A stretch of DNA of 64,000 nucleotides from a virus. The stretch's first letter is position 1; each line of letters begins with the position of its first letter. The stretch lies in IMG/VR virus record IMGVR_UViG_3300046062_000024; one strand, written 5' to 3'. Position numbers and translations under genes: made by a program. Positions 1-15,978 of the stretch are shown here, piece after piece. The notes under the pieces are model-generated. The model was not told the DNA's origin and made no database searches. It saw only the letters and a list, made by a program, of their open reading frames with translations.

Positions 1-1
1 C

Positions 2-296: not shown

Positions 297-364
297 GCGT
301 GACCCGTAGTTGGCTGGCTGTACGCCTCGGTGCCCCTTTCGGGGCCGAAACCCGCCGCTGCGGG

Positions 365-796
365 CTACTTTCCGAGGCGGTCGCAGACCGCCTCGACGTT
401 CTCCTCGTGCCGGCCGTCGGCCGTGAACCCGTGGCCGGCGGCGGTGTAGTCGCTCGGTTCCTCGCCGATGGCTTCGGCGAGAATGGCGGACACGTCCGAG
501 TACGTCACGAGCATCTCGTGTGGTGCCACGTTCGTCATGCCGCGGGCCTCGTCCGCGGACCGCTGTCGGTCCTCCACCGCGCCGGACAGCGCGAGCGCCC
601 CGTTGTCCTCGTCGTTGCTGAACTCGTCGGCCGAGTCGAACAGCGTGTGGTCGAGGATGAACTCGTCGGTCACGTCGTCGCGGAACGGGTACAGCAGCGG
701 AAACGCCGCCCACGCCTGGATGTATTCCTGTCCGCTCGCCTCGCGTAGTTCGTCCAATGCGGTCGGTTTCGTCACGTCTGTGTCTATCTCGACCAT
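365..796 (-). CDS. Cassette gene, acidic hypothetical protein (143 aa)
   Basis: ATG 4 nt after the repeat; acidic halophile composition. Confidence 0.8.
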   Translation of the reverse strand: MVEIDTDVTKPTALDELREASGQEYIQAWAAFPLLYPFRDDVTDEFILDHTLFDSADEFSNDEDNGALALSGAVEDRQRSADEARGMTNVAPHEMLVTYSDVSAILAEAIGEEPSDYTAAGHGFTADGRHEENVEAVCDRLGK

Positions 797-841
797 GCAA
801 TCACGCCCCTCTCGGGGCCGTAGTGGCCTGTGGAGGCCACC

Positions 842-1576
842 CTATGGTTCTGCGTCTACGTCGTCGGGCGTTCGTTTGTCGCGCGTCTCCTCGACATCGG
901 GCATCGAATACTCGCCGAGCCGGGTTGCCTCCTCGGACAACTGCTTGGTCGGGTGGTACTCGTACTTCCGGCCGTCGCCCTCGGGCTGCTGGCGGCGGAC
1001 GACGAGTCCCTTGTTTCGGAACAGCCGCGACGAGCCGTTCTGGGTCTGTGTTTCCGACAGCGGGTTCGGCTCGTACTCGGCGAGCGCGCCCCCGCTGACC
1101 CAATCGGCGTCGTGGTCGGCATACCACTCCATGAGGATGTCGGCGATGACGTGGAGTTGGGTGTGTTCCCGGATACGCCCCGGCGGCTCGCCGGGGAACC
1201 CGACGTACTGCGGGTCAACTTTCCCGGCGAGCGGCGTGACCTGCGGCTGGAACCCGCTGCTGCCGGGACTCGAACTGGTGTCCTCGTCGGTGGTCGATGG
1301 CGCCGCCGGCTCGTCGCGCTCGGTCACGTCGGCGTCGATGGACGCGACCTCGTAGTCGTCCCACTCGACGCCGCCGAACATCTCGGCGGTAATGTCGCCG
1401 GCGTTCGGGCCGTCCGCGACGAGCGCGACCTCCGTGTCGCCGTCGCCGTTGACGACGACGGTGATGTCGGCCGCCTCGATGTCGCTCGGCGGGATGCCGA
1501 GGCCATTGAGGAGGCCCCTGGCGATGTTCGCGGCGGCGGAGCCCGCGACCTCGATGTTGGCTGTGTTGCCTGTCAT
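842..1576 (-). CDS. Cassette gene, protein with C-terminal winged-helix-like domain (244 aa)
   Basis: ATG 7 nt after the repeat; C-terminal SSRLFRNKGLVVRRQQ..GRKYEYHPT resembles a wHTH wing. Confidence 0.7.
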   Translation of the reverse strand: MTGNTANIEVAGSAAANIARGLLNGLGIPPSDIEAADITVVVNGDGDTEVALVADGPNAGDITAEMFGGVEWDDYEVASIDADVTERDEPAAPSTTDEDTSSSPGSSGFQPQVTPLAGKVDPQYVGFPGEPPGRIREHTQLHVIADILMEWYADHDADWVSGGALAEYEPNPLSETQTQNGSSRLFRNKGLVVRRQQPEGDGRKYEYHPTKQLSEEATRLGEYSMPDVEETRDKRTPDDVDAEP

Positions 1577-1662
1577 CGTGGAGTCACGCCCCTCTCGGGG
1601 CTGCCAGGAGCCGCTGTGTGCGCGTGTGTGCGGCTTCGTTGGTTGGCCGGCCCGTGGGCCGG

Positions 1663-2037
1663 CTACGCGCGCTCGCCGTCAGCGTCGGCCTCGACGCGGT
1701 CGAGAGCCACCGACAGAACGTCGGCTTCCATCACGACGTAGGCGAGACGCTTCAGTGTCTCCTCCGGGGTGTCGGCCTCGACGAGCGCCGGCCAGTCCGA
1801 GTACGTCGCCGGGTCGGTGTCCGCGTGTTCGACGATGGAGCCGTACAGTGCGCCGTCGTAGTAGTTCCGGGCGAACCAGTCGTGATAGTTGAGTTCCTCG
1901 GAACACATCTCCATGACGCCCTGCCGCCGGGAGTCGAAGTGGCCCGACTCGACCATCTCCTCGGCCTCATCGAGTAGCATCTCCACGAACGGTTCGACCG
2001 CCGCGTCGTACTCCGATTGCGTGATTGCGTCCGTCAC
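1663..2037 (-). CDS. Cassette gene, hypothetical protein (124 aa)
   Basis: GTG 6 nt after the repeat; acidic. Confidence 0.8.
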   Translation of the reverse strand: MTDAITQSEYDAAVEPFVEMLLDEAEEMVESGHFDSRRQGVMEMCSEELNYHDWFARNYYDGALYGSIVEHADTDPATYSDWPALVEADTPEETLKRLAYVVMEADVLSVALDRVEADADGERA

Positions 2038-2080
2038 AGTGTCTCACGCCCCTCTCGGGGCCGAATAGTATTGAGTCTGC

Positions 2081-2542
2081 CTACGACCGCGGCACGTCGT
2101 CCACCTCGACGGGGTACGTCGGGCCGTCCGGCAGGTCCTCGACGCGCCGGTTCTGAACGACGGTCTCGACCTCACCGTCCGGGTGGACAACGTGGTCGAA
2201 CGACACCGCTTCGGTGCCGAGACGCCGCGCTTTCCAGTGGTCGTGTGGGGGGACCGCCTCGGCGTCGCCGAACGTCCGGAAGTAGGCGTACTCGTCCACC
2301 GAGTTGACGGTCCCCCGCGTGCCGGTGTTCAGCGACCAGTATTCTTTCGCGTCGTAGAACGCCTGCCCGTTCCCGAGCGACGAGTAGCCGGGATGAACGT
2401 CGCCGCCGATGATGGCGCCCATGATGTAGCCGCCACAACCGGGACACTCCCGGGGCGCGTCGTCGGGACCGGGCTCGGGGTCGCTACACGAACACGGAGT
2501 GATACCGCCGTCGCCGTCGCCGTTGTTGGTTGCCTGTGGCAT
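2081..2542 (-). CDS. Cassette gene, Cys-containing hypothetical protein (153 aa)
   Basis: ATG 5 nt after the repeat; CSC..ECPGCGG. Confidence 0.75.
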   Translation of the reverse strand: MPQATNNGDGDGGITPCSCSDPEPGPDDAPRECPGCGGYIMGAIIGGDVHPGYSSLGNGQAFYDAKEYWSLNTGTRGTVNSVDEYAYFRTFGDAEAVPPHDHWKARRLGTEAVSFDHVVHPDGEVETVVQNRRVEDLPDGPTYPVEVDDVPRS

Positions 2543-2584
2543 CGTGGTCACGCCCCTCTCGGGGCCAATGTCCGGGGGTGGCGT

Positions 2585-2950
2585 TCACCCCTCGTGGCGG
2601 TACGTCTCCGCGATGGTGGCGCCGTGCTGGTCGATGGCGACGGTTCCGTCGAACCCGGTGACTCCGTAGCCGACGTTCTTGCTCCGGGTCCCGGTCGCGT
2701 CCTCGATGACCACCTCGTCATCCTCGACGGACAGTTCATCCCACTGGAAGGCGGTGTCGTCCAACGTCGCGCGGTCGAGGAAGATGTGGATGCCCCACAC
2801 CTCGGGCGGGTCGATGACCGACCACCACAACTCGTCGCCGTTGTCGTTCTCCGCGAGGACGGTGCCGCGCTCCTCGCCTTCGGGCGGTTCCTGCTCTTTG
2901 ACGTGGAACCCTATCTCCGTGAACGTCTCTTTGAACGTCTCGTGGTCCAT
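2585..2950 (-). CDS. Cassette gene, hypothetical protein (121 aa)
   Basis: ATG 4 nt after the repeat (MDHETFKETF); the longer track ORF reads through the repeat. Confidence 0.75.
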   Translation of the reverse strand: MDHETFKETFTEIGFHVKEQEPPEGEERGTVLAENDNGDELWWSVIDPPEVWGIHIFLDRATLDDTAFQWDELSVEDDEVVIEDATGTRSKNVGYGVTGFDGTVAIDQHGATIAETYRHEG

Positions 2951-2954
2951 CGAA

Positions 2955-3143
2955 TCACGCCCCTCTCGGGGCAGATACCGTGACATACCGCGACGAACCA
3001 TCCCGCTCGGGGCAGTAACCGTGACAGACCGCGGTATATCGCGGGGTATCGCCCCGTTTCGGGGAGATGCCGCGACATACCGCGACGAATCACCGGACAC
3101 CGACCCGTCTCGGGGAGGTACCGTGACATACCGCGACGAATCG
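2955..3143. repeat. Four degenerate ~41-52 bp tandem units, each containing the right half of the array element
   Basis: ACCGTGACATACCGCGACGAA identical at 2977-2997 and 3120-3140, near-identical at 3070-3089; TCGGGG begins each unit. Confidence 0.85.
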
Positions 3144-3719
3144 TCAGACCTCGGCGGCGTCGGCCGCCCACTGCATGAGGTCTTTCGCCTCGTTGTCGCG
3201 CTTGGCGGTGTTCTCCAGTTGCGCGAGCATCGCGTTGTACTCACGGGCGTCGAGGCCGCCGACCGGGCGGTTCGTGTGGTCGGCCTGCTCGGCTGTCCGT
3301 GTGGCCTCGGTTAGCACGTCCGTGTCCGTTCCGTCCCACCGTTTGAAGTTCTGGAGCGTCTCGACGACCGACAGGTTCGGCCGCTCGGTCACGTACCGGA
3401 CCGCTTGCTGTATCCAGTCGTGGACACCACCGTTGAACGCGACCGAGAGGTCGGCGGTGTCGGCCAGGAGGTCGAACCCGTCGAGTGCGGGGTTTGCCCG
3501 GAACTCGAACGAGTGGAACAGGTCCTCCACGGTCGTCCAGTGTTCGGACAGCACGTAGCCTTCGAGGTTGACGTAGCCCTCGGGGAACTCCTTGCGAGCG
3601 CTCACGTCGACCGTCAGCGCCAGGGTGTTCTCGACGGCGTAGTCCGCACGGCCGTCCTGCCCCCTGTCGCGGTGGGTCGCTTCTGCTTCGACCGTTCCGT
3701 TGACACGTATCGTTATCAC
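3144..3719 (-). CDS. Cassette gene, hypothetical protein (191 aa)
   Basis: GTG 6 nt after the repeat. Confidence 0.75.
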   Translation of the reverse strand: MITIRVNGTVEAEATHRDRGQDGRADYAVENTLALTVDVSARKEFPEGYVNLEGYVLSEHWTTVEDLFHSFEFRANPALDGFDLLADTADLSVAFNGGVHDWIQQAVRYVTERPNLSVVETLQNFKRWDGTDTDVLTEATRTAEQADHTNRPVGGLDAREYNAMLAQLENTAKRDNEAKDLMQWAADAAEV

Positions 3720-3761
3720 GGACAATCACGCCCCTCTCGGGGCGGCGACCGCTTACGGCGG

Positions 3762-4301
3762 TCAGTCGAGGATGCCGGCGAGTTCGCCGAGGCGGCGGAG
3801 GTCCTCGGACATATCCTCGCGGAGATGCGCTCCGTCGCGCTCGGTGGTGTGCGTGGGGAAGGCGTAGCCGTTCCAGTCGTCGCGGAGCCCGCGGACGTAG
3901 CCGTTACAGAACGCCTCGGCGCCGTCCGGCCACTCGTCGTCGTGGCTCTCGTAGGTGTCTCGGTCGCCGACCTCGTGTATCTCGATGTCCACGTTCCCGG
4001 TGAAATTCATCAGGTGAACGCCGCCGGATTTGACGTACACCCGGATGATGTCGCGGTCGCGGTCCGCCCGGGCGATGGTCGGGACGCTGTTCATCGAGCG
4101 GACGAGGAGTTCCGCCAGCGCCTCGGTCCGTGAGAGGTCAACTGGGACGGCGTGGAACACTTGGCGCTCGTCGCACTCCGTGCAGGTCCCCGACAGGCGA
4201 CGGCCAGTAACGGACACCTTCGGGTCTCCTGCCCCACACTCCGGGCACTGGTAGACGAGTCGCTCCCACGCTTCCGTCTCGGGTAGCTCCTGTTGTGGCA
4301 C
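3762..4301 (-). CDS. Cassette gene, zinc-ribbon protein (179 aa)
   Basis: GTG 5 nt after the repeat; CPECG...CTECD. Confidence 0.8.
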   Translation of the reverse strand: MPQQELPETEAWERLVYQCPECGAGDPKVSVTGRRLSGTCTECDERQVFHAVPVDLSRTEALAELLVRSMNSVPTIARADRDRDIIRVYVKSGGVHLMNFTGNVDIEIHEVGDRDTYESHDDEWPDGAEAFCNGYVRGLRDDWNGYAFPTHTTERDGAHLREDMSEDLRRLGELAGILD

Positions 4302-4349
4302 GGGAATCACGCCCCTCTCGGGGCCGAACCGGGGCGGGCGCCCCGGTCG

Positions 4350-4778
4350 TCAGTTGATGGGTTCGGCCCACGCCGCGATGTCCGCCGGAACGACCGACCC
4401 GGGGTTTTCGTAGAAACCGCCGTTCCGCATGACCCACCCCTGCATCCACACGTAGGCGAGGGCACGCGAGGCGGCGAGCGACTCCACCTCCAGCATTGCG
4501 ACCGACGAGGCGCCGGACACCATCTCTCCGGGCTCGTCGGGCTGGAGAACACAGTCGCCGTTGTCGTAGTCGCCCATCGACGGCTGGACGCTGTACGTCC
4601 CGTCGTCGGCCTGCATGACGCGGGCCGCTGTTGCCGTCCGGGGGTGGACGAACGCCTCGTGGTCCTCGTCGATGTGTCGGGCGTCGCGGCTGGCGATTTT
4701 GTCCTCGTCCCAATGCTCGACGCTGTAGAGCAGGTCCTCGTCGTCCGGGACCTGCTTGAAACTCGTAGCCATATCCAT
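4350..4778 (-). CDS. Cassette gene, hypothetical protein (142 aa)
   Basis: ATG 6 nt after the repeat. Confidence 0.8.
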   Translation of the reverse strand: MDMATSFKQVPDDEDLLYSVEHWDEDKIASRDARHIDEDHEAFVHPRTATAARVMQADDGTYSVQPSMGDYDNGDCVLQPDEPGEMVSGASSVAMLEVESLAASRALAYVWMQGWVMRNGGFYENPGSVVPADIAAWAEPIN

Positions 4779-4838
4779 CGGGCGTCACGCCCCTCTCGGG
4801 GCCGGGACCGCTTACGGCGGTCAGTCGAGGATGTCGTG

Positions 4839-4940
4839 TCAACAGTCCGGTAGCACTTCGATGTGTTCGTCACACACGGCTATCTCTGTACGCCCATCCC
4901 GCGTGACGGCAGGCGTGTCACAGAACGCACAATACGTCAT
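4839..4940 (-). CDS. Small Cys/His peptide (33 aa), ATGA-coupled to the upstream cassette gene
   Basis: MTYCAFCDTP..AVCDEH; 4-nt ATGA overlap with 4937..5329; followed in frame by HDILD* remnant. Confidence 0.5.
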   Translation of the reverse strand: MTYCAFCDTPAVTRDGRTEIAVCDEHIEVLPDC

Positions 4941-5329
4941 GTGACACCTCCGTCGCCGGGGCGCCGGATGGTGATGTCCGCAAGCAGCCAGTACGCCTCG
5001 TACCGCGAGAAGTGGCGCTCGGGGTGGTTCGGCGTGCCGGTCGCGCACACGTAGTCCGGCCCCACCTCGACATCCACGGCGACGTTCCACGATTCACCGT
5101 AGGTCATGTCGGTGTAGTCCACGTCGGAGACGCGGTGCCACTCGTCCGGCCCGGTTTCGACGGTGACGTACTCGGGCGTCCAGCGGTACCTGACGGAATC
5201 CACGGTGTGTCGGAGCGTGCGGTCGTCCAGCAGGTCGAGGTCGCTCGCGTGAACCGGGTGGAACGCATGCGGCTCGCTGGCGAACTCGCGGAGTTGCGCC
5301 GGGTCTGGATAGCGTGTTTCCTGTGGCAT
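4937..5329 (-). CDS. Cassette gene, hypothetical protein (130 aa)
   Basis: ATG 5 nt after the repeat (MPQETRY). Confidence 0.8.
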   Translation of the reverse strand: MPQETRYPDPAQLREFASEPHAFHPVHASDLDLLDDRTLRHTVDSVRYRWTPEYVTVETGPDEWHRVSDVDYTDMTYGESWNVAVDVEVGPDYVCATGTPNHPERHFSRYEAYWLLADITIRRPGDGGVT

Positions 5330-5372
5330 CGGCTTCACGCCCCTCTCGGGGCCGACAGCGGGCGTGTGCCCG

Positions 5373-6134
5373 CTACTCGTCGTCGGCCGCCTCGTCCGGC
5401 GGTTGGACGCTCCACCCGTCGGGGAGGAGACAGACGGCGAGGGTGGCGACCTCGTAGGATTTGAGGTTCGCCTGTATCTCGCCGGGGAGGTCGAGGTCGT
5501 CGTTCTCGACCAGCATCCAGTACAGGTCGCTCACGTCGTCTTTGAACAGCGACGTGAACCCCGTGTCGCGGGCGAGACACACCATCGGGCCGTAGCCCGT
5601 GTCGGGTTCCAGGTCAACCACCTCGCGGTTCGTGATGGACCCGATGGTCGGCCCGGCCTCGCGTTTGCGCTCGGCGCGCTCCGCTTGCGTGCGCGGCATC
5701 CGGTAGCCAGCGTTCTTCCGGTGGTTCTGGATGGCGCCGCAGGCGTTACACACCTGTTGGCGCTCGCCCGGGAGGGTGGCGACCGTCTGTTTGAGTCGGT
5801 CGTACCCGCAGCGGGCGCACTCGCCTTCGACTATCTCGGTGTACGAGCCCTGCGTGCCCTCGACGGGGCCGGACCGCATGTTGGACTCCAACAGCACCGG
5901 GAGGTCCTCGCCGGTGTCCATCCGGGCGATGCGGGGGTCGTCGCCGCCCGAGTCCTCGGGGAGCCGGGAGCGGACGCCGGGGCGGTCACACGGGTGGCCG
6001 TCCACGTCCGTCGTCTCCTGGCCGAGATAGTCCGGGCCGACGGTGCCGGATACGTCGAGGTTGTAGCCGCTCGGTGCGCCGCGTTCGTTGGCCCCCATCC
6101 GCTTGAGGGCACTGTCAGGCTCCTCGCCTGTCAT
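5373..6134 (-). CDS. Cassette gene, zinc-ribbon protein (253 aa)
   Basis: ATG 5 nt after the repeat; CARCG...CNACG. Confidence 0.8.
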   Translation of the reverse strand: MTGEEPDSALKRMGANERGAPSGYNLDVSGTVGPDYLGQETTDVDGHPCDRPGVRSRLPEDSGGDDPRIARMDTGEDLPVLLESNMRSGPVEGTQGSYTEIVEGECARCGYDRLKQTVATLPGERQQVCNACGAIQNHRKNAGYRMPRTQAERAERKREAGPTIGSITNREVVDLEPDTGYGPMVCLARDTGFTSLFKDDVSDLYWMLVENDDLDLPGEIQANLKSYEVATLAVCLLPDGWSVQPPDEAADDE

Positions 6135-6177
6135 CGCGGTCACGCCCCTCTCGGGGCACTGGTGTGGGTGGTGGGGG

Positions 6178-6474
6178 CTACAGGTCCGCGGGTGGAAAGC
6201 GCATCACCTCGACGGTGGCGAGTAATTCGTCGTCGCCCACCTCGATGTTCGGGTCGAACCGGCCGGAGCGGAGACACACGAACGCCCACTCGGCGCGCTC
6301 CGGTCTGTCCTCGACGTGGACCCAGAAGCCGAGACTGGTCACGTCCGAAAGCACCACGTCGGTCTGGTGTCCCATCACCCCGGCTTTCCACTCGCCGGAG
6401 ACGCGGTCGATGTAATCCATGTTGCGGAACGCCTGTTCCATCAATTCTCGCTGTCGTTCGGTCGGGTGTGGCAC
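6178..6474 (-). CDS. Cassette gene, hypothetical protein (98 aa)
   Basis: GTG 5 nt after the repeat (MPHPTERQ). Confidence 0.75.
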   Translation of the reverse strand: MPHPTERQRELMEQAFRNMDYIDRVSGEWKAGVMGHQTDVVLSDVTSLGFWVHVEDRPERAEWAFVCLRSGRFDPNIEVGDDELLATVEVMRFPPADL

Positions 6475-6524
6475 GGGAATCACGCCCCTCTCGGGGCCGG
6501 GAGCCGGCGGTCGCCCGCCGGTGG

Positions 6525-7469
6525 TTAGCGGAACACGCAGTACCCGATGTGGTCGTCGTCGCACGTGTGGAACACGGCGCCGTCGATGTGGTCGTCGTCG
6601 TGGGCCGCGTTCAACGCCGGGTGGTCGTCGTCGCCTTCTTCGATGAGGCCTTCGTCCTGTAACTCGAACGGGTCGATGGACCGCTGGTAGCGCAGTTCAT
6701 CGCTCCCGTAGAGACAGGACTCGTAATCGACCCACTCGCAGCGTTGACACCGGAACTCTAACTCGTGGGGGAGCCAGCCGCCCATCGCGCTGGTGTACGC
6801 CCGCGGGCCGGTGTAGCCGCCGCGAACGTCCGCGCCCTGATGGACTTGGACGAACCCGTACCCGGCGTAGGGACCGCCGAGGACGACGCCCTGAAGCACC
6901 TGCGAGAGTGAGTGACACTCCCCGTTGTAGGTGTTGAAGGTGAACCCCGCCTCGGTGCCCTGGATGTCGTTCTGGACCGCGAGAACGTCCGTGATGAACC
7001 CGTCGGGGACACCCCACTCGCGGAGGTCGAACTCCGTGAGCGCGTTGTCGAACAACAGGTCGCGGAACGCCTCGCTGGACGAGAGCCACGGCTCGCGCTC
7101 CTGGCTGTCGGTGTGGCCGAAGGCGTAGAGTGCGGCTTCCAGCGCGACCGCCGGCCGGTCGCGGCCGAAGGCCCGCTCCATCCAGTGGTAGACGTTGTGG
7201 GTAACGTAGCCGTTCCCCACGTCCCACGCCGGGCGTTCCCACGGGGGATTCTCCTGGTTTTCCTCCCAGTGCCGACCGTAGGCACTGCCGGAATCCAAGA
7301 GGTGCCTGCCCGTGTTCTCGGTCAGTTGGGACCGAATCACGTCCACGGCGTCGTCCGTGGCCATCGGGATAGGCTTCTCGCCGGGGGCGTTGTACGCCGC
7401 CTCGGCGAACGCCCGGACGAGTCGCTGGAGTTCGTCGGTACTGCCGTCTGTGGTCTGGTTGCCTGACAT
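6525..7469 (-). CDS. Cassette gene, conserved-looking viral hypothetical protein (314 aa)
   Basis: ATG 5 nt after the repeat; motifs TGRHLLDSGSAYGRHW, NTYNGE, HQGADVRGGY that I recall from uncharacterised phage proteins (unverified); C-terminal CQRC. Confidence 0.8.
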   Translation of the reverse strand: MSGNQTTDGSTDELQRLVRAFAEAAYNAPGEKPIPMATDDAVDVIRSQLTENTGRHLLDSGSAYGRHWEENQENPPWERPAWDVGNGYVTHNVYHWMERAFGRDRPAVALEAALYAFGHTDSQEREPWLSSSEAFRDLLFDNALTEFDLREWGVPDGFITDVLAVQNDIQGTEAGFTFNTYNGECHSLSQVLQGVVLGGPYAGYGFVQVHQGADVRGGYTGPRAYTSAMGGWLPHELEFRCQRCEWVDYESCLYGSDELRYQRSIDPFELQDEGLIEEGDDDHPALNAAHDDDHIDGAVFHTCDDDHIGYCVFR

Positions 7470-7521
7470 GGCAGTCACGCCCCTCTCGGGGCTGCTACCC
7501 GCCGATGAGGCGGGTGGTGTG

Positions 7522-7935
7522 CTACTCGGATAACACCATCTCGGGGACGGCCTCGTCGGGGAGTGCCGCCTCGAACTCGGCCGCCGCCGCGTTCACCTCG
7601 TCGATGAGCCTGACGACGAACCGAGGGTAGTATTCGACGGCTCGGCGGAGCAGGTCATCGTCGGCTTCCGGCGCCGGGACGCCGCTGCCCCGGCTGTTCG
7701 GGTGGTTTTTCGACACGAACAGCGCCCCGCTCTGACGGACGGTGTAGTAGCACGACCGGCCGGGTTTGGCGACCTTCACCGTGATGTCCCCGACGCCGGC
7801 CCCGCCGTAAGAGCGGGGTTTCGTGACGCCGGTGAGCATCTCGGCTTCGGGACGGTCGCGGAGCCACTCGCGGAGCGCCTCGTCGCTGTCCTCGACGCGC
7901 TCGACGGCTTCTCGGAGTTGTGGTATCTCCTCCAT
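7522..7935 (-). CDS. Cassette gene, hypothetical protein (137 aa)
   Basis: ATG 7 nt after a variant repeat. Confidence 0.8.
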   Translation of the reverse strand: MEEIPQLREAVERVEDSDEALREWLRDRPEAEMLTGVTKPRSYGGAGVGDITVKVAKPGRSCYYTVRQSGALFVSKNHPNSRGSGVPAPEADDDLLRRAVEYYPRFVVRLIDEVNAAAAEFEAALPDEAVPEMVLSE

Positions 7936-7991
7936 AGCGGTATCATGCCCCTCTCGGGACGAAACCGGGGAGTTGCCCCCCACCGACCGGG

Positions 7992-8255: not shown

Positions 8256-8313
8256 AGCGGTCACGCCCCTCTCGGGGCCGAAGGCCGGAGCGTCGCCGGC
8301 GGGGTGGGTGGCT

Positions 8314-8607: not shown

Positions 8608-8653
8608 CGTGGGTCACGCCCCTCTCGGGGCCGAAGGCCGGGGCGGTCCCGGG

Positions 8654-8797
8654 TTATTCCAGGTCGTGGACGGCGACGGGTTCGTCGTCGCTCGTCCGGT
8701 AGACCGCTATCTCGCTATGCTCCTCGCTGACGGAGACTACCAGGTCGCCGTCGATAAAGACGTTCAGGTACTCGCCGCGGTGGTCTGCCTCTATCAT
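8654..8797 (-). CDS. Cassette gene, small acidic protein (47 aa)
   Basis: ATG 6 nt after the repeat; MIEADHRGEYLNVFIDGDLVVSV...DLE; below the ORF-track cutoff. Confidence 0.7.
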   Translation of the reverse strand: MIEADHRGEYLNVFIDGDLVVSVSEEHSEIAVYRTSDDEPVAVHDLE

Positions 8798-8842
8798 CGG
8801 TGGTCACGCCCCTCTCGGGGCAAATACCGGGTGGGTTGTGGG

Positions 8843-9244
8843 TTATTCCCGGGGCGGCTTCGGGCCGATTTCGTCAATCAGGTCGGGGCGGTACCGCTCG
8901 GTTTTCTCGTACAGTACCCGCCGGAAGTGGACTGGCCCCGCGCCGATGCTCACACCGGCGGCCCACAGGTAGGCCGGACCGAAGGTGTCCAGCAGGAGCC
9001 TGACGTTGTTCCCGTCGGCGTGGAAAAACGCCTCGGCGACGTTGCCGTCCCACAGGTTGCCGGCGAAGTCGCCGCCGCGCTCGCGGACCCGCTCGGGGTC
9101 GTCGTGCTTGCGGACGAGTTCCTTGACGCTGTGGCGGTCCACGTCCGGGTGGTCGGACGGCTCGGCCAGCATGACGGTGGCGAACTCGGGCGATGCGCCG
9201 GCGACGAGTAGCCGTTCGGCGTCCGAATAGGAGTCGGGGTTCAT
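8843..9244 (-). CDS. Cassette gene, hypothetical protein (133 aa)
   Basis: ATG 6 nt after the repeat. Confidence 0.8.
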   Translation of the reverse strand: MNPDSYSDAERLLVAGASPEFATVMLAEPSDHPDVDRHSVKELVRKHDDPERVRERGGDFAGNLWDGNVAEAFFHADGNNVRLLLDTFGPAYLWAAGVSIGAGPVHFRRVLYEKTERYRPDLIDEIGPKPPRE

Positions 9245-9287
9245 CGGTGGTCACGCCCCTCTCGGGGCGACGGTGTGGGGCTGTCGG

Positions 9288-9497
9288 TCAGCCCTGTTGT
9301 TTGTTGAGTTGGGCCTTCAGTTCGGACCACAGGGACACGTCGCCGTCCCCGGTTCCGAACTCGTCGGCCTTGACCTGTTCTTCCAGCAGCCGCCCGACTC
9401 GTTCGGCGTCCATCTCGGTCGGGACGAACAGCATCGCTTCCGGGTCGTCGGGGACTCTCAGTATGTCCGTCGAGGCGTTCGGGTTGTCCGATTCCAT
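9288..9497 (-). CDS. Cassette gene, hypothetical protein (69 aa)
   Basis: ATG 6 nt after the repeat. Confidence 0.75.
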   Translation of the reverse strand: MESDNPNASTDILRVPDDPEAMLFVPTEMDAERVGRLLEEQVKADEFGTGDGDVSLWSELKAQLNKQQG

Positions 9498-9542
9498 CGG
9501 TGGTCACGCCCCTCTCGGGGCCGAACGAGGCGGGCCGGGGCG

Positions 9543-10019
9543 TTAGCCCCACTCCTCGCTGTGTAGTTGTTGCTCGCAGCGGAGGCAGGTGACGCTCTCA
9601 CCGCCCGATATGTAGTGGTGGGCGCGGTACGTGTAGACGCCGCGCTCGCCGCCACACTCGGGACACTCCTCGGGGACGCCCGAGAGGTCGGCCTCGAAAA
9701 GTGGGAACGCCACCGTGTAGCGACCCACGTGGTCGTCGCTCCGTTTCGCGCCGTGCTGTGGGTCGCCGCGGGTGACTGAGAAGTCCCGTACCTCGCGCGT
9801 CTCGACCGTCCACTCGCTGTCGTGGACGTGTTTCAGGACGTGGAGGTCGCCGGTCCCCGGCGTGCCCGGGATGTCGTGGTTTGCGACCGTCTCCAGCGCC
9901 GCCTCGATGCGGCTGGTCGAGGGACCGCGGCGTTGGCGGCCTCGGTCCCGTCGCGCTCGCTGGTGGTCGGTTCGGTCGAGTCGTGCCCGTCGTCGGGCTT
10001 CGGGGTAGGGGTCAGTCAT
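9543..10019 (-). CDS. Cassette gene, Arg-rich N-terminus and C-terminal zinc ribbon (158 aa)
   Basis: ATG 7 nt after a variant repeat; CPECG...CLRCE; the N-terminus may be frameshifted. Confidence 0.7.
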   Translation of the reverse strand: MTDPYPEARRRARLDRTDHQRARRDRGRQRRGPSTSRIEAALETVANHDIPGTPGTGDLHVLKHVHDSEWTVETREVRDFSVTRGDPQHGAKRSDDHVGRYTVAFPLFEADLSGVPEECPECGGERGVYTYRAHHYISGGESVTCLRCEQQLHSEEWG

Positions 10020-10063
10020 ACCGGGGTCTCGCCCCTCTCGGGGCCGAACGCGGGATGGGTGGG

Positions 10064-10300
10064 TTAGTAGTACCAGCCCATCTTGTCGCATATCTCGCGG
10101 GCGAGTTCCACTTCGCTCTCGTTGCGGGCGTCCACGTACTCGGTGCCGGCCAGCGCCACGATGCCCGGTTTGAGTACCTGCCGGAACACCTCGCGCTGGA
10201 GATAGTTGTGTTCGCTGTTGATGCCGGCTTGGAACTCGGCTATCTCGATACCGCTGTTCACGCTGTCGCCGATTGCGTCGGCGAGGTCGGCTGCGTCCAT
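10064..10300 (-). CDS. Cassette gene, hypothetical protein (78 aa)
   Basis: ATG 6 nt after the repeat. Confidence 0.75.
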   Translation of the reverse strand: MDAADLADAIGDSVNSGIEIAEFQAGINSEHNYLQREVFRQVLKPGIVALAGTEYVDARNESEVELAREICDKMGWYY

Positions 10301-10348
10301 CGGTGGTCACGCCCCTCTCGGGGCCGGCGGGGGCAGTCCCCGCGCTGG

Positions 10349-10591
10349 TTACTCGTGGACGACGACCCGGAGGCCGGACTCGACCATCTCGACGGCGGGG
10401 TCGGATGTATCCATCTCGTCCGGTACGTCGTACTCCTGGTCGGTCACGCGGACGGCCTCGACCTCGACGGCGAACGGGTCGCCCGGCCACTCGACTCCAT
10501 TGACGACGGCTTCGGCCGCCGTTTTGTGGTCGTCGGCCTCGGCCGCGCCGAGGACTTCGCCGCTTTCGACGTAGATGATGTACGTATCCAT
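10349..10591 (-). CDS. Cassette gene, hypothetical protein (80 aa)
   Basis: ATG 5 nt after a variant repeat. Confidence 0.75.
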   Translation of the reverse strand: MDTYIIYVESGEVLGAAEADDHKTAAEAVVNGVEWPGDPFAVEVEAVRVTDQEYDVPDEMDTSDPAVEMVESGLRVVVHE

Positions 10592-10636
10592 CGGTGCCAC
10601 GCCCCTCTCGGGGCCAAACCGGCTTGAAGCCGGTGG

Positions 10637-11167
10637 TTAGTCGTCCAGTCCCGCCACTACGTCGTCACGCGGTATCCACGACGTGGCCCCCGCTTCACCG
10701 TAGGGGGCGAAGTCCTCGGCCAGCATGATGCGGACCTCGGTGTCGTCGTCGTCCAACAGGTACGCCGCGGCGTGGCGACCCATATCGTTCGGGTCGCGTA
10801 CCTCCACGACCGGGTGGGGATGGCCGTGGGGGTAGTCATGCACCAGCAGGGTCGTGTTCAGGCGGTCCCCGCAGACATGGCAGGACGCGCCGGGGTAATC
10901 CCACTCGTCGTTCGCGGCGACGACCCCAACACCGAAGCCGTCGGGGTCGTGCCCGCCCGGCGGGAACTCCGTCAATGGGTACATCTCGCCGTCGCCCGCA
11001 GACTCGACGGACACATCCGGCGCGCACGATAGGCAGTACGCCGCGCCGTCGTAGATGTAGCCGGCCGCGCCGCCGGGCCACACGCCGCCAGGGAGTTCCC
11101 GGGCAGTCGGGGCGAGGTCGTCGTCGTCGGTCACGGACTCCGCACTCAGGTTTCCTATGACGCCCAT
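10637..11167 (-). CDS. Cassette gene, Cys-containing hypothetical protein (176 aa)
   Basis: ATG 7 nt after the repeat; CLSC...CHVCG. Confidence 0.8.
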   Translation of the reverse strand: MGVIGNLSAESVTDDDDLAPTARELPGGVWPGGAAGYIYDGAAYCLSCAPDVSVESAGDGEMYPLTEFPPGGHDPDGFGVGVVAANDEWDYPGASCHVCGDRLNTTLLVHDYPHGHPHPVVEVRDPNDMGRHAAAYLLDDDDTEVRIMLAEDFAPYGEAGATSWIPRDDVVAGLDD

Positions 11168-11209
11168 AGTCGAGTCACGCCCCTCTCGGGGCAGGACGCC
11201 GAGGGACCG

Positions 11210-11428
11210 TTATACACGGTCCGGGTCGCGGAGCAACACGTTCCGCTTCAGCGTGTGTCCGCACTCGGCGCATTTGATGTCGCCTTCTACCCACCCGCAG
11301 GGGTCCCGGCGTGTCGCGTGCGTCTCGGTCGGTGGGGGACACTCCCCACAGACGGGACACTCCGGCGGCACGGGCGGGCCGGGTGGGCGGTTCTCCCGTC
11401 TCGCGCCGCGTCGTCGTTCGCTGTGCAT
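11210..11428 (-). CDS. Cassette gene, Arg-rich N-terminus plus CPxCG zinc finger (72 aa)
   Basis: ATG 8 nt after the repeat; CPVCG...CAECG. Confidence 0.65.
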   Translation of the reverse strand: MHSERRRGARRENRPPGPPVPPECPVCGECPPPTETHATRRDPCGWVEGDIKCAECGHTLKRNVLLRDPDRV

Positions 11429-11490
11429 CGTCGGAGTCACGCCCCTCTCGGGGCTGACGGGAAGGCTGGATTGGGGCGCCGCCCCGGTGG

Positions 11491-11877
11491 TTACTGTCCG
11501 TACAACTCGAAGTCGAGGGTGTCGGCCTCGTATGGGGCGACGGCGGCCATGTAGCCGTGCGCGAAGTCCCGCGCCCGCGTCCGGTCGCCGGCGGGCGGCG
11601 CGGCGGCCTCGGGGCTGTCTTCCGCCAGCGGGCGGACGACCCCCATCAGGTCCGTCATGCCGTGTTCGGGGTACGCCAGGATGAACCAGTTGTCGTCGTG
11701 GGTTCGCCCGAGCAGGACTTGGTGGCCGTTGGCGAACAGGTAGGCCTCCTCGCCGTAGGCTTCGCCCTCGGCGGGGTCGAACCGGGTCCAGCCCGGTGGG
11801 AGTCGCTCGTCCGGCATACCCAGGGCCTCCTCGTTGTCGATGCCGTCGCGTAGGTCGGTTCCGTCGTACCCTGTCAT
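11491..11877 (-). CDS. Cassette gene, hypothetical protein (128 aa)
   Basis: ATG 7 nt after the repeat (MTGYDGTDL). Confidence 0.8.
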   Translation of the reverse strand: MTGYDGTDLRDGIDNEEALGMPDERLPPGWTRFDPAEGEAYGEEAYLFANGHQVLLGRTHDDNWFILAYPEHGMTDLMGVVRPLAEDSPEAAAPPAGDRTRARDFAHGYMAAVAPYEADTLDFELYGQ

Positions 11878-11923
11878 GGGTCGGTCACGCCCCTCTCGGG
11901 GCGATAAATCGGCGGCGGGGCGC

Positions 11924-12310
11924 CTATTCGTCGGACACCGGCGGGTACACCAGGGTGTTCGTCGCGCGCGGCGGCGTGACGAACTCGTCGTTCGACGGCT
12001 CAACCACGACGACGAGAACCGCGTCGTCGGGACTGATTACCTCGTTCTCCCCGTTGTCGGTGCCGAGCCACGAGGGGTGGTCGTCCATTATCTCGACGCC
12101 GCCGTCGTCGCAGATTTGGTACATCCGCGGTACCGCCTCGTAGGCGGGGTAGCCGTCCGCTTGGCCGATACGGTTAACCACGGTACCGTCCACGTCCACG
12201 GACCGGGAGACTGTCCCGACTATCAGGAGGAGCGGACCCCTACAGTCGCCGCGCTTACGGCCCGCTCGGTCCATCAAGTCGGCCAGTCCGGTTACTGTCG
12301 TGTCCGTCAT
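11924..12310 (-). CDS. Cassette gene, hypothetical protein (128 aa)
   Basis: ATG 3 nt after a variant repeat. Confidence 0.75.
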   Translation of the reverse strand: MTDTTVTGLADLMDRAGRKRGDCRGPLLLIVGTVSRSVDVDGTVVNRIGQADGYPAYEAVPRMYQICDDGGVEIMDDHPSWLGTDNGENEVISPDDAVLVVVVEPSNDEFVTPPRATNTLVYPPVSDE

Positions 12311-12352
12311 GGGTCACGTCCCCTCTCGGGGCAGGGCGACCGCTTACGGCGG

Positions 12353-12829
12353 TCAGTCGATTGGCGAGAGGGGCCGCAGGCTTTCCTCGCCGGCGTAGGG
12401 GCCGACATAGACGACTCGGTGGCCGTACTCGCCCGCGCCGGTGGTGAGTCGCTGCATGGCCGCGACCATCGGGTGGTCGTCGCGGAGGCCGTCGATGGCG
12501 TACAGCCGCAGGTCGTTGTTCGGCCGCCATTGGACGGCGGCGTGCAGCGGCTCGCACTCGACCCACTCGTCGGTGTGCGGCGGCTCGATGCAGACCCGCG
12601 TTGTCTTGTTACAGCGGGAGGTCGAGGGCGAAACCTCCCACCGGCGGCCGTCGGCCGTCTCGGCGTACACGCCGGAGACGTGGCGGTCGTCGGCGTCGGG
12701 GTCGTAGCGGTTCCGGCCGGCGGCGAGTTCGCGCTCCTCGCTGGTCCAGTCGCCGTCGTCGCGCGCGGGAACGAGCGCGCCCTCGTTCGTGGACTGGACG
12801 CCGGTCGCGTCTGCTGTTGCTCGGGTCAC
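12353..12829 (-). CDS. Cassette gene, hypothetical protein (158 aa)
   Basis: GTG 6 nt after the repeat. Confidence 0.75.
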   Translation of the reverse strand: MTRATADATGVQSTNEGALVPARDDGDWTSEERELAAGRNRYDPDADDRHVSGVYAETADGRRWEVSPSTSRCNKTTRVCIEPPHTDEWVECEPLHAAVQWRPNNDLRLYAIDGLRDDHPMVAAMQRLTTGAGEYGHRVVYVGPYAGEESLRPLSPID

Positions 12830-12873
12830 AGTTAGTCACGCCCCTCTCGGGGCCGGGCGACCGCTTACGGCGG

Positions 12874-13416
12874 TCAGTCGTCGTTCGTGGCGTCGTCCGG
12901 CAGGTCGCGCTCGGACACGTTCTGGACCTCGCTCGGTTCCACGCCGTAGCCGGAGGCGTGCGACCAGTATCCCTCAACGTCGCTCTCACCGACCTCGAAC
13001 GTCTCATGTCGGACGTTCCGATAGTGGGTGAGGTCGGCGACGTAGTAGGTCGCGCGGTCGAGGAACGGCGGGGCGGCGGGCAGGTGATGCTCGTCACCGA
13101 GGGACCGGAGTATGGCCTTCACGTTGTCGGTGAAGTCCGTCCACGGGTCGCTCGGGTCCGTCCACACGTCCGCGGGGCGGAACCTGTACCGTTCGACGAG
13201 GTGCTTCGGTTCCGACCACGCGGCCGGGGGCGTCACCTCCACGACGCGCCAGTCGGTTCCCGTCCACTTGATGTATTCGCCCCCGTGTTCGATGGGGTTC
13301 ACGTCCCAGTAGTTCACCCACCGCTCCGGCGGGTCGAACGCCGGACTGTCGGTGGGCGCGTGCTTGGGCCGCTCCTGATACCGGGTTTCGAGGGTTGTGT
13401 CGAGTTGGCCGGTCAT
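12874..13416 (-). CDS. Cassette gene, hypothetical protein (180 aa)
   Basis: ATG 7 nt after the repeat. Confidence 0.8.
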   Translation of the reverse strand: MTGQLDTTLETRYQERPKHAPTDSPAFDPPERWVNYWDVNPIEHGGEYIKWTGTDWRVVEVTPPAAWSEPKHLVERYRFRPADVWTDPSDPWTDFTDNVKAILRSLGDEHHLPAAPPFLDRATYYVADLTHYRNVRHETFEVGESDVEGYWSHASGYGVEPSEVQNVSERDLPDDATNDD

Positions 13417-13466
13417 CGGTCGGTCACGCCCCTCTCGGGGCCGGCGCGGGCGCTTCGCCCGCGCGG

Positions 13467-13793
13467 TCAGTCGTCGTCGCGGAGGCCGAGTTCGCTGAGG
13501 CGCTCCCGCAACGCCTGATGTTGGTCTACGGTCATGCCGGCGTCGAACTGACTCATGTCGTCGTTCGAGAGGTACACCACCCAGGACAGGATGGATTGGA
13601 CGATTGGGTCGTTCGGGCCGGCCACGTCGCTCCAGTAGTCGGCGGTGGCGATGAGGAGCCGGCGGTTCGTCGGCGGGTGGCGTCGGGCCATAGCCGCAGC
13701 CACGTCCGCGAACTTCTCGCGGACCTCGGCCACGTCGTCGCCGGCGAGTTGCCCTATCGGTTCCGCGAGGTCGATGGTGGGGTTGGCGCTCAT
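13467..13793 (-). CDS. Cassette gene, hypothetical protein (108 aa)
   Basis: ATG 8 nt after the repeat (MSANPT). Confidence 0.75.
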   Translation of the reverse strand: MSANPTIDLAEPIGQLAGDDVAEVREKFADVAAAMARRHPPTNRRLLIATADYWSDVAGPNDPIVQSILSWVVYLSNDDMSQFDAGMTVDQHQALRERLSELGLRDDD

Positions 13794-13842
13794 GGCCGGA
13801 GTCACGCCCCTCTCGGGGCCGGAGCCGGCAGCCGGCGGCTGG

Positions 13843-14016
13843 CTACCGGGTCGTGTTGCCGTGCGGCGGGTTGCGGTGCATGACCGGCTCCGGGTTTCCG
13901 GGGGCCAGCCGCGCCGCCTGTAGGTCCTCGCACCGCGGGCACAGTTCGGGGCCGGGTGGTCGGGGGTCGTTACACCGTCTGCACGCGAGGGAGTCCTCGT
14001 AGTCGTTGGCGCTCAT
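13843..14016 (-). CDS. Cassette gene, small zinc-finger protein (57 aa)
   Basis: ATG 8 nt after the repeat (MSANDY); CRRC...CPRC. Confidence 0.65.
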   Translation of the reverse strand: MSANDYEDSLACRRCNDPRPPGPELCPRCEDLQAARLAPGNPEPVMHRNPPHGNTTR

Positions 14017-14065
14017 GGCCGGAGTCACGCCCCTCTCGGGGCCGAGACGCGGGAGTCGAGACGGG

Positions 14066-14458
14066 TTAGACCGTGACGGTCATGCCGTCCGTGAACTCCC
14101 GCTCGCCGCTCGGCGTCTCCAGGTACCACTCGTAATCCTCCTGGTACACCTCGTACCCGTCGGGCAGGTAGCGGTTGATGCGGTCCTTTGTCGTTTGGGT
14201 CCGGTAGCCGTGGCTGTCAAGCCGGCGCGTGCGTCCCTCCGTAACGACCACCGGCGACTGGTGGTAGAAGTGGACGAGTGCGCCGTCGTACCGGACTTTC
14301 ACGTCGCGGTACGCGCCTTTGTCGGTCGTGCGGGCACACGTACAGCCCTTAACCGCGGGGCCGTTGTTACCGGGCTGGTGGTAGCCGGACCGCTCTTGTA
14401 CGGTTCCCTCGTCGGTCGCAGTCCCGAAACTCGGGACGGGTAGACTGTCGGCGCTCAT
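14066..14458 (-). CDS. Cassette gene, phage-type hypothetical protein (130 aa)
   Basis: ATG 8 nt after the repeat (MSADSL); YHQSPVV..GYRTQTTKDRIN motif recalled from phage hypotheticals (unverified). Confidence 0.8.
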   Translation of the reverse strand: MSADSLPVPSFGTATDEGTVQERSGYHQPGNNGPAVKGCTCARTTDKGAYRDVKVRYDGALVHFYHQSPVVVTEGRTRRLDSHGYRTQTTKDRINRYLPDGYEVYQEDYEWYLETPSGEREFTDGMTVTV

Positions 14459-14508
14459 GGCCGGAGTCACGCCCCTCTCGGGGCCGGCGGGGGCGGCCCC
14501 CGCGCTGG

Positions 14509-14769
14509 TCAGGGCAGGTACTTCAGGGGGTCCTCGTCGGACTCCCGCATGACGCCCTTCATGTGTTCGGCTTCCAGTTCCTCGACGGACTTGAACCGCG
14601 ACACCGACACGTCGCCGGCTTTGTCGCCCCACTCGCAGGTGGGGCAGCCGTCGCCCGACTGGAACTTCTCCGCCGGGTCGTCCGGCTGGTCGTCCCACTC
14701 GGCCACGTCGTGTCGGAGCGCGTACAGCGAGTACGGTTCGCCGCACTTCGCGCAGGGTATGTCGTTCAT
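14509..14769 (-). CDS. First (promoter-proximal) cassette gene, zinc-finger protein (86 aa)
   Basis: ATG 7 nt after the repeat; CAKCGEP...GCPTC. Confidence 0.8.
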   Translation of the reverse strand: MNDIPCAKCGEPYSLYALRHDVAEWDDQPDDPAEKFQSGDGCPTCEWGDKAGDVSVSRFKSVEELEAEHMKGVMRESDEDPLKYLP

Positions 14770-15949
14770 CGGCGGGTCACGCCCCTCTCGGGGCCGAAAG
14801 CCGCGATGCGAGTGTGGGTGTGTTCGCTAGTTGCCCACGGCGGCCCTCTCGGGCCGGTGCGCGTGGCTATGGTGGCTCTTGTGTCCCCGTGCAGCGGGCG
14901 TCTGTATCCACGGTGCTGTTTACTCTCGGGTACGTCTATCTGGTGATGGCTGGTGCCTTCTATGGCCGGTGGCGGCGGCGGCTTGTCGCCGTCGTGCCTG
15001 CCGGGTCGGGCTATGCCGACCGAGGCCGCGGCCGTCATACGCGCGCTCGCGTCGGGTCGCGTGCCATAGCCGTGAGATTCCTCGCGCCCCGGCGCTATGC
15101 CGGGGTCGCGTGCCCTAATAGCCCCTTCCAGGGACTCCGAAAACCACTCGTCGGCTGGTAGGCCGTGCGGCCGAACTGACCGGCGACCGCGCCGGGTCCG
15201 GGGTACTCCCGCGCCCCACCGCGCCCGCGCCGCTCGCGGGTGCGTGTGTTGGTCGGACTCGCGGGGATACTACTGGCCCCCACCGCCCTGTCGGCTCGGG
15301 AGTCTCACCCTTAATCGGGGCGCGGGGCCGGGCCGCCGTATCCGGCGGGGCGTCGTATTGTCGTACCCTGACGCCTCGGGTCGCGGGGCCGTTCCCCGGG
15401 GAGTCTCCCGGTTATCAATTGAGTGGGTTTTGGTTTCCCGTACCCACCGGGAGACTCGCACGCCCGCCGTTCGGGGCCTTAGACCGCCCCCGTTGCAGGG
15501 GACAGGATTGGACCCGTCCGGCGACGCACACACCGACCGCGCGACTTCTCGCCCGCGGCCCCGTCGCCCGCACACCTATCCGCGGCCACCGCCGCGTGTG
15601 CTATGGGCCGGAGCGTCTCGCGTGGGTGGGTAATCACCCCGGGCGAGCGTAGCCGGTGCCATGACGCGCGGGGGGTCGCCCCCGCGCCGTATGCTATTTC
15701 CGGGTTTACAGTTAAGTCTCCCCGTCGCAACCGGGGGTAGGCGGTGGTGCCGGAACCGTAGGGGCCTCACACGCCCCATTCCCGCGGCCCTACGGGGCCA
15801 CGGAGGGGGGCGCTTGAACGGCCGCCGCCGTCCGACGCCACCGGCCAACCGCAGGCCGGCACCGCGCCGGGTGGGCCGTGCCGGGATACCCCCGCGCCGG
15901 GAACCCGCCCCACGTCAGGGGGGATACCCCCATGTTGGGCCGCGGGGAG

Positions 15950-15957: not shown

Positions 15958-15978
15958 TTTCGGTTCGCAAATTCCGGC

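Follow-up and report, generated by a model that had tools for sequence, protein, structure and literature searches.

A GNRA-capped hairpin with a Shine-Dalgarno-like tail at the gene starts of a one-way array in an uncultured haloarchaeal virus

The DNA analysed here is a stretch of 64,000 nucleotides (nt) from an uncultured haloarchaeal tailed virus of salt crust (IMG/VR record IMGVR_UViG_3300046062_000024; hereafter the window). In its first 15 kb one short sequence recurs before one small gene after another, which raises the question of what an almost invariant hairpin is doing beside the start codon of nearly every gene in an array. In a typical spacer a 5-bp GC stem with a GAGA cap is followed directly by the four nucleotides GUGA, which resemble a Shine-Dalgarno (SD) sequence, and the start codon comes after a further 4–8 nt. 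On balance, and with confidence only somewhat above even, we favor the interpretation that this is a start-associated RNA module, a hairpin coupled to a weak SD sequence, that would act in internal translation initiation or its control and that also forms a recombination seam. A preliminary description of the window had proposed an RNA element composed of a GNRA hairpin and an SD-like tail, and the fixed position relative to gene starts, the preserved pairing, the variants and the tail words are all consistent with that proposal on comparative grounds.

A repeated hairpin at gene starts

The repeat was located by scanning for the 14-nt core, which reads GCCCC-GAGA-GGGGC on the mRNA strand, allowing up to two mismatches and using 100 dinucleotide shuffles as a control. 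There are 34 matches in the window, all on the minus strand and all between positions 248 and 14855, whereas the shuffled sequences contain 2.0 on average and never more than 6, and the repeat is thus genuine. The plus strand and the other 49 kb of the window contain no copies of the core. Twenty-nine of the 34 cores are identical, as are 27 copies of the 18-mer formed by the core and GTGA, and identity between copies mostly ends 0–2 nt beyond this 18-mer. The array and its canonical repeats are as follows.

1–14797, minus strand: one-way array of 32 small genes, with an open reading frame (ORF) after each motif copy; mostly acidic ORFans and Zn-ribbon proteins.
801–14794, minus strand: 27 identical 18-mers, GCCCC GAGA GGGGC GUGA on the mRNA strand, each 4–8 nt before a start codon. 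The cores (14 nt each, with the tail in the four lower coordinates) start at 805, 1588, 2048, 2552, 2959, 3730, 4311, 4789, 5339, 6144, 6484, 7479, 8265, 8618, 8808, 9255, 9508, 10311, 11179, 11441, 11889, 12840, 13428, 13806, 14029, 14471 and 14781.
12830–12873, minus strand: an example of a typical spacer; its stop codon is followed by a gene-specific GC hairpin, which a short linker separates from the universal hairpin and the tail.

Several aspects of this arrangement bear on function. First, the spacing to the start codon, given as 3–8 nt in the preliminary description, is 4–8 nt from the end of GTGA and 8–12 nt from the 3′ end of the hairpin in 32 of the 34 copies; no start codon follows the other two, at 332 and 14842. 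Second, the 32 copies are followed by ORFs of 47–314 amino acids (aa) that form an unbroken one-way array of 31 complete genes and a last one (1–241) that runs past the window edge; almost none of the array proteins has a Pfam or PHROG match. Third, the array spacers have a median length of 48 nt (35–60 nt in 26 of 31) and usually present the same order of parts: after the stop codon there is often a GC hairpin specific to the gene, and a short linker then leads to the universal hairpin, its tail and the start codon. The gene-specific hairpin of the spacer at 12830–12873 moves with its upstream gene in related viruses. Finally, a 5′ TTCG extension, noted in at least seven copies in the preliminary description, is present in eight.

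Conservation of the repeat in related viruses

Related contigs were traced from proteins homologous to the adjacent integrase or to the product of array gene 5373–6134, for which there are 80 homologues, and arrays of the same type are present in five contigs from hypersaline and halite metagenomes (L027, L155, L156, L023 and L122). A covariance model built solely from copies with a 4-nt loop and run over 254 kb identifies 112 copies in six loci, every one of them on the gene strand of an array-bearing locus. An ORF of at least 40 aa follows 106 of the 112 model matches, the distance from the hairpin 3′ end to the start codon is 9–12 nt in 95 of these 106, and ATG accounts for 88% of the start codons. 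There are no model matches on the opposite strand, nor any in four more distant, array-less relatives (L157–L160), each of which has a homologue of 5373–6134. Among array genes with spacers of at least 25 nt in four of the loci, 95 of 110 have a model match and most of the other 15 have a recognisable diverged hairpin.

The motif is retained between the window and L027 even though the flanking sequences differ and the array proteins are only 56–81% identical, and each genome tends to its own form of it, the dominant variant having a 4-nt GAGA loop in the window and a 5-nt GAGAC or GAGAU loop in L155. The array-less relatives are organised differently: their genes overlap or lie end to end (median spacer 2 nt) and use ordinary SD words of the GGAG type, which marks the hairpin-bearing spacer as a trait derived in a single sub-lineage. 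The stop codons of the arrays also have a context of their own: CC directly follows the stop codon in 49 of 102 array genes (window, L027, L155 and L156) and in 10 of 152 genes of the array-less relatives, and the common array stop context TRRCC resembles the tail GUGACC.

Beyond these loci, scans of 185,579 species genomes, IMG/VR and most metagenome contigs returned the motif almost only as single chance matches, with L122 the one true relative recovered. Assorted bacteria (L016, L097, L120, L130 and L136) have the 18-mer of hairpin and GUGA in class II tRNAs of the Leu/Ser type, where it matches exactly the variable arm and its junction with the T-arm; this is probably a coincidence and accounts for most of the single matches in the motif scan.

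Variant copies and pairing in the stem

The copies that differ from the 18-mer, and the irregular repeats associated with them, are listed here; they include all of the departures noted in the preliminary description, both those said to keep the fold or to alter only the tail and the two regarded as exceptions (the AAGA loop and the extra base).

248–265 (core 252–265), minus strand: AAGA loop and GUGA tail, before the GTG start of gene 1–241; 24.4 bits with the covariance model.
290–302, plus strand: inverted partial copy, such that the mRNA reads the complement of the loop, 3′ arm and tail; the arrangement is repeated in L027 and L156.
332–345, minus strand: GAAA loop, with no SD tail and no start codon, within a gene-less junction conserved in L027.
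2951–3143, minus strand: long spacer whose fold has three degenerate extra copies with stems shifted or shortened yet pairable.
7943–7960 (core 7947–7960), minus strand: 5′ arm GUCCC, a C-to-U change that gives a G-U pair, with tail AUGA.
10027–10044, minus strand: canonical hairpin with tail GAGA replacing GUGA, before gene 9543–10019.
10597–10614, minus strand: canonical hairpin with tail GUGG.
12314–12332, minus strand: copy with one extra base (a bulge) between the 3′ arm and the tail.
14842–14855, minus strand: orphan copy GGCCC GAGA GGGCC, compensated by a change on both sides of one pair, with no start codon, at the 5′ edge of the array.

The GGCCC GAGA GGGCC variant that is an orphan in the window sits directly before an ATG in L155. 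Tandem Repeats Finder reports just short 10-nt repeats in the spacer at 2951–3143. The inverted copy at 290–302 could, from its sequence, pair with the copy at 248–265, and the gene-less junction in which it lies is common to three genomes (window 242–364, minus strand; L027 205–323; L156 approximately 11504–11642), containing in each the start-less GAAA copy and an inverted copy able to pair with the 3′ arm and tail of the next hairpin.

Is it the structure or the sequence that is conserved? In the model matches 99.2% of the stem positions are paired, a value reached in none of 500 shuffles, and the predicted energy of the hairpin is −10.0 kcal/mol. There are eight one-sided changes in the four inner pairs and all of them give G-U on the sense strand (which is A-C on the other strand), while two pairs are changed on both sides. 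Further departures, with a loop of the GAGA type, are seen in copies that lie beyond the model matches, including CUCCC-GAGG-GGGAG, GGUC-GAGA-GACC, CCCCC-GAAA-GGGGG (with a C-G closing pair), a flipped GGGGAG-AGA-CUCCCC followed by GGAGGA, and a 4-bp GCCC-GAGA-GGGC that occurs twice and has lost one base per side. These diverged stems coexist with canonical copies inside the same genomes, which argues against a duplex operator for one dimeric protein and for a hairpin on the sense strand. No Rfam covariance model matches at its gathering score over the 64 kb, and none at E≤1 in 14700–16400.

A duplex-DNA operator or promoter, in which a dimeric regulator would bind the GCCCC-N4-GGGGC dyad and control transcription gene by gene, would nonetheless account for the dyad symmetry, the strong invariance and the genome-specific consensus variants. 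It also has precedents, one being PeSL, and comparable halovirus repeats are promoters: the repeats of HF2 are 58 and 29 bp, have AT-rich motifs and were shown experimentally to be promoters (PMC8707807), and the HGTV-1 motifs are summarised in the same sense (PMC3950731). The HF2 repeats resemble the window repeat in being conserved intergenic repeats of a haloarchaeal tailed virus, with positions kept across the genus (PMC8707807), and in the lower-GC L155, L156 and L023 a run of three to five Ts is often found immediately 5′ of the hairpin, some 30 nt ahead of the start codon. However, most window spacers contain no A/T run longer than three and hence no TATA box, and they lack the AT-rich motifs of HF2; the actual HGTV-1 motifs (NC_021328) are about 100 nt long and AT-rich, with three AT-rich boxes and clear TATA boxes. 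Moreover, the loop is asymmetric and always in one orientation, one-sided changes restricted to G-U are unexpected for a duplex site, and so are pairing-preserving changes of both half-sites alongside canonical copies in one genome. We consider an operator of this type very unlikely.

The tail as a possible ribosome binding site

The extended SD sequence of haloarchaea is GGAGGUGA, of which both GUGA and AGGAG are parts (PMC3986360). GUGA is the tail word in 80 of the 106 copies that precede an ORF, and the alternatives include AGGAG(A), seen in several L156 tails. Counting as SD at least four nucleotides complementary to the 16S rRNA 3′ end and placed 3–8 nt before the start codon, 91 of 106 tails have GUGA or a longer SD word; the 16S 3′ end used is the literature sequence (PMC3986360) rather than that of a host genome. 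In modelled pairing with the anti-SD the tail alone gives −5.1 kcal/mol and the 3′ arm and tail together −11.9 kcal/mol, compared to −10.0 kcal/mol for the hairpin itself. Because the 3′ arm and tail pair with the anti-SD far better than the tail does, the hairpin is predicted to mask half of a potentially strong SD, and such masking would offer a simple route by which a hairpin-stabilising factor could control all of the genes jointly.

Probable promoter, leader and transcript

Archaeal promoters typically have an AT-rich TATA box near position −27, and archaeal terminators are oligo-T. Two features upstream of the array are relevant here.

15950–15956, minus strand: TTTTATA, the sole TATA-like run upstream of the array and likely its single promoter.
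14856–15949, minus strand: GC-rich non-coding leader of about 1.1 kb, from the promoter-like box to the first array gene.

Runs of six A/T on the array strand occur in 1–16400 only at 15950, at 16265 (by the integrase start) and at 11904. In most spacers neither A/T runs nor T-runs exceed three, and no T-run is longer than four. Since the spacers are without TATA-like or oligo-T runs and the sole box is at 15950, the array is likely, judged from sequence, to be one long transcription unit, which would make all 31 genes internal cistrons. Per-gene promoters in the window were rejected as there is no TATA-like run in the spacers.

A patch of the leader (15230–15450, minus strand) is conserved in L155 (1757–1990) and L027 (8850–9060) at 69–76% identity, and folds into several hairpins with 11 pairs changed on both sides among the three sequences compared; possible identities are a non-coding RNA, an attP site and an origin.

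If the array is a single transcript, the hairpins might punctuate it. A host or viral endonuclease would cut at or near the universal hairpin, giving single-gene mRNAs with a protective 5′ hairpin, and the upstream piece would be left with the gene-specific 3′ hairpin at its end; phage T7, with RNase III sites between its genes, and the cutting of CRISPR repeats by Cas6 are parallels. This is compatible with a start-associated module, and it is attractive in that a clear gene-specific GC hairpin follows the stop codon, ahead of the universal hairpin, in about half of the spacers, that the 3′ hairpin moves with its gene and in the L027 orthologues retains its stem although bases have changed, and that an invariant sequence with genome-specific variants is expected for the site of one enzyme. 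It nevertheless seems unlikely, as no nuclease candidate was found among the array proteins, the hairpin matches no Rfam family, and many spacers have no 3′ hairpin, those of L156 being unstructured C/A-rich linkers. Folding of the gene-specific 3′ untranslated regions (UTRs) is more stable for the antisense than for the sense strand, a comparison confounded by the C-rich, G-poor composition of the sense strand.

Exchange of genes at the hairpin

The preliminary description missed a second property of the repeat, which is that the hairpin, as sequence comparisons of the related viruses indicate, is a DNA seam for the reshuffling of single genes between them. Eleven window genes have counterparts in L027, ten of them full-length at 56–81% identity, and their order differs; the remaining 21 of the 32 array genes have no L027 counterpart, and several L027 genes likewise have none in the window. 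Between orthologues, the sequence that runs from the stop codon as far as the universal hairpin tracks the upstream gene and the tail tracks the downstream gene, and the breakpoints therefore fall in the hairpin. Recombination reshuffles single genes between relatives at this element because the same 14–18 bases sit at every gene boundary. In the window some copies have longer tracts in common, whose ragged ends reach as far as 20 nt into coding sequence, and homologous exchange thus fits better than a fixed crossover point.

Whether a dedicated enzyme is involved is a separate question, raised by a gene that lies just beyond the promoter.

16177–17157, plus strand: divergent tyrosine recombinase, a generic phage-type integrase (PF00589, 60 bits).

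The repeat could be the core of an integron-like cassette system run by this recombinase, with its closeness to start codons secondary. The layout of recombinase, promoter and one-way single-gene array recurs in the window, L027 and L023, and the shuffled order, the many genes without a counterpart and the location of the breakpoints would all follow. An integron attC site is an imperfect palindrome of 57–141 nt with R″/L″-L′/R′ boxes (GTTRRRY) that follows each cassette. The array resembles integrons, including archaeal ones (PMC9668308), in its one-way promoterless single-gene units, its divergent tyrosine recombinase and promoter, its folded boundary site and its variable content. In contrast, the boundary site here is 14 nt long and nearly invariant, has no GTT/AAC or R/L boxes by inspection, and carries the ribosome-binding tail of the downstream gene. 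Likewise, the recombinase is not an IntI, scoring 39 bits against the NCBIfam integron-integrase model TIGR02249 (cut-off 265), 23 against PRK15417 (cut-off 435) and 71 against XerA (cut-off 220), and a homologue with 38% identity sits at a provirus-host junction beside host housekeeping genes, as expected of an ordinary integrase. The ragged tracts favor homologous exchange, and the SD-like tail and the fixed spacing to the start codon would be left unexplained. An integron proper was rejected on the wide margin by which the recombinase fails the IntI models, the provirus homologue and the absence of attC features, and we think it improbable that the repeat is primarily a recombination site, although recombinase-mediated exchange at the array may occur.

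The 38% homologue is on L149 (1–10056), next to genes for RNase P subunits, proteasome alpha and SBDS, at the end of an element integrated in a haloarchaeal chromosome. In L156 a 91-nt tRNA-Pro(GGG)-like gene (16096–16186, plus strand) directly follows the array end and is possibly an attachment site or a viral tRNA. Mobile palindromes of the REP/RAYT or MITE type are spread by a Y1 transposase and have terminal repeats or target duplications; no transposase was seen among the proteins scanned, with no further examination of this type, and the repeat unit is only 14–18 nt.

A candidate binding protein

One array gene is of interest as the possible source of a factor that recognises the hairpin.

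9543–10019, minus strand: array gene whose 158-aa product has an arginine-rich helix at the N-terminus and a CxxC..CxxC ribbon at the C-terminus.

Each of the three long array-bearing relatives has a homologue, and none was seen in the array-less loci examined. As a hairpin-binding factor this protein is a speculative candidate, and its AlphaFold model is poor (pLDDT 54). Arginine-rich N-termini are found in two array proteins, this one and that of 11210–11428 (minus strand), amid a very acidic proteome.

An arginine-rich protein also brings to mind lambda N, and the preliminary description likened the hairpin to boxB; in an antitermination system of this type an arginine-rich viral protein bound to hairpins in the nascent RNA would let the polymerase read through the array. 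The boxB hairpin is present once per operon, within a nut site near the operon start and with boxA, and acts on transcription elongation and termination. The 5-bp GC stem and the GNRA or GNRA-like loop (5-nt in L155) do resemble boxB, and the arginine-rich candidate co-occurs with the arrays. The likeness does not extend to the arrangement, since nut sites do not occur as one copy per gene at ribosome-binding positions, of which the window has 31; furthermore, the window spacers have no oligo-T terminators to overcome and no boxA-like partner was noticed. We attach very little weight to antitermination as the function of the repeat.

A proposed role in translation initiation

We return to the start-associated module as the preferred interpretation. 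Haloarchaeal mRNAs are mostly leaderless and distal genes normally overlap their neighbors, with over 90% of distal genes in Haloferax operons placed within 4 nt of the upstream gene (PMC3986360). The array would be transcribed as one long early transcript from the TATA-like box at 15950, and each of the 31 internal genes would require its own initiation signal, because the genes lie about 45 nt from the previous stop codon and do not overlap as in normal haloarchaeal operons. The hairpin-tail module would provide that signal. The hairpin may keep the site in a defined, exposed geometry, or may mask the G-rich 3′ arm that with the tail forms a stronger extended SD, and it could be a common handle through which the ribosome or a protein of the virus or host would switch all of the genes jointly.

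There are several reasons for caution, and each weighs against this interpretation. First, 29 of the 34 cores are identical, a uniformity far beyond the needs of a purely structural element, and every genome has a dominant variant of its own, which together suggest either sequence-specific or trans-acting recognition or homogenisation by recombination. Second, true two-sided changes are few, and copies within one genome are not independent. Third, a hairpin in single-stranded DNA would give the same pattern. Fourth, transcription as one unit, folding in vivo and the effect on translation are all inferred. Fifth, SD motifs in the 5′ UTRs of Haloferax volcanii do not drive initiation (PMC3986360), which makes the tail uncertain as an SD. 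Finally, the modelled accessibility of the tail and AUG is 5.45 kcal/mol in the native form, 6.62 with a broken 5′ arm and 6.50 with a flipped stem; modelled accessibility was dropped as support, as the gain of 1.2 kcal/mol is small and the structure-preserving flip fails to reproduce it.

A stronger form of the start-associated interpretation, which we advance tentatively and hold to be rather doubtful, is that the hairpin is a dedicated internal-initiation device, a minimal ribosome-capture element or operator, switched by a virus protein such as the 9543–10019 product and rendering any tagged gene instantly expressible. If true, it would let translation start at 31 codons located about 45 nt past the previous stop, where SD motifs alone fail in Haloferax 5′ UTRs, and the instant expression of genes placed behind the tag would explain their cassette-like turnover. 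Initiation on leadered and internal cistrons is an open problem in haloarchaeal translation, and here one invariant hairpin-tail precedes each of 30–40 genes with 45-nt spacers in viruses whose closest array-less relatives use ordinary overlapping genes. An 18-nt natural element with stem, loop and tail variants is well suited to existing Haloferax reporter systems.

Relationship to other start-associated and stem-loop repeats

In function, the window repeat comes closest to the start-associated sequences (SAS) of cluster K mycobacteriophages (PMC3203893), to which it is analogous without being a member. The SAS is a 13-mer, GGGATAGGAGCCC, that contains an SD and forms no stable hairpin; it is scattered in 11–19 copies 3–7 nt before the starts of non-structural genes, is absent from the host genome and other phages, and is presumed to function in translation (PMC3203893). 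Both are short, asymmetric, one-orientation repeats near gene starts with 16S-complementary bases and an enrichment for ATG, and the window repeat occupies a similar position, on one strand and 4–8 nt before the start in 32 of 34 copies. The consensus GGGATAGGAGCCC is not shared, however, and the host is archaeal. Unlike the SAS, the window repeat is a GNRA hairpin beside an SD-like tail, precedes nearly every gene of a 15-kb array, and lies at the seams of gene shuffling.

In evolutionary terms the closest counterpart is the PeSL of T4-type phages (PMC2839356, PMC4122927), an early, sigma-70-like promoter plus terminator stem-loop, together with the PeSL-like motif described for HGTV-1 (PMC3950731). 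In common with the window repeat, PeSLs are stem-loop repeats before most of the small ORFans in a hyperplastic region, and recombination between copies shuffles modules. The window element has the stem-loop and the recombination, but it contains no promoter; in contrast to the PeSL and HGTV-1 motifs it is 18 nt long with an all-GC stem, has no TATA box and adjoins the start codon. The concept of a regulatory tag that doubles as a recombination seam, established with the T4 PeSLs and proposed for HGTV-1, would thus extend to a translational, promoter-free form. The core sequence was not found in a relevant context in the literature searched, and among start-associated or PeSL-like tags this is the first we can document that consists of a GNRA-capped hairpin joined to a ribosome-binding tail and not of a promoter.

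Origin of the window and other genes

The window proteins are viral and haloarchaeal in character and include a primase-helicase, a virion protein distantly like HGTV-1 gp10, an S8 protease, haloarchaeal domains of unknown function (DUFs) and a prenyl synthase with a LAGLIDADG intein. The DNA is present in halite metagenome DNA runs, all from one study, with no RNA run among those listed, and a search of a phage collection returned no DNA near-identical to the window. Two genes outside the array have unusual structures. The 479-aa protein encoded at 24427–25866 (minus strand) consists of many tandem helix-turn-helix units, and dozens of helix-turn-helix families match it, each over short stretches. 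The adjacent polyprenyl synthase (25863–28085, minus strand) is the gene split by the intein with its LAGLIDADG endonuclease, and its homologues in L023 and L027 (298 and 311 aa) are without the intein.

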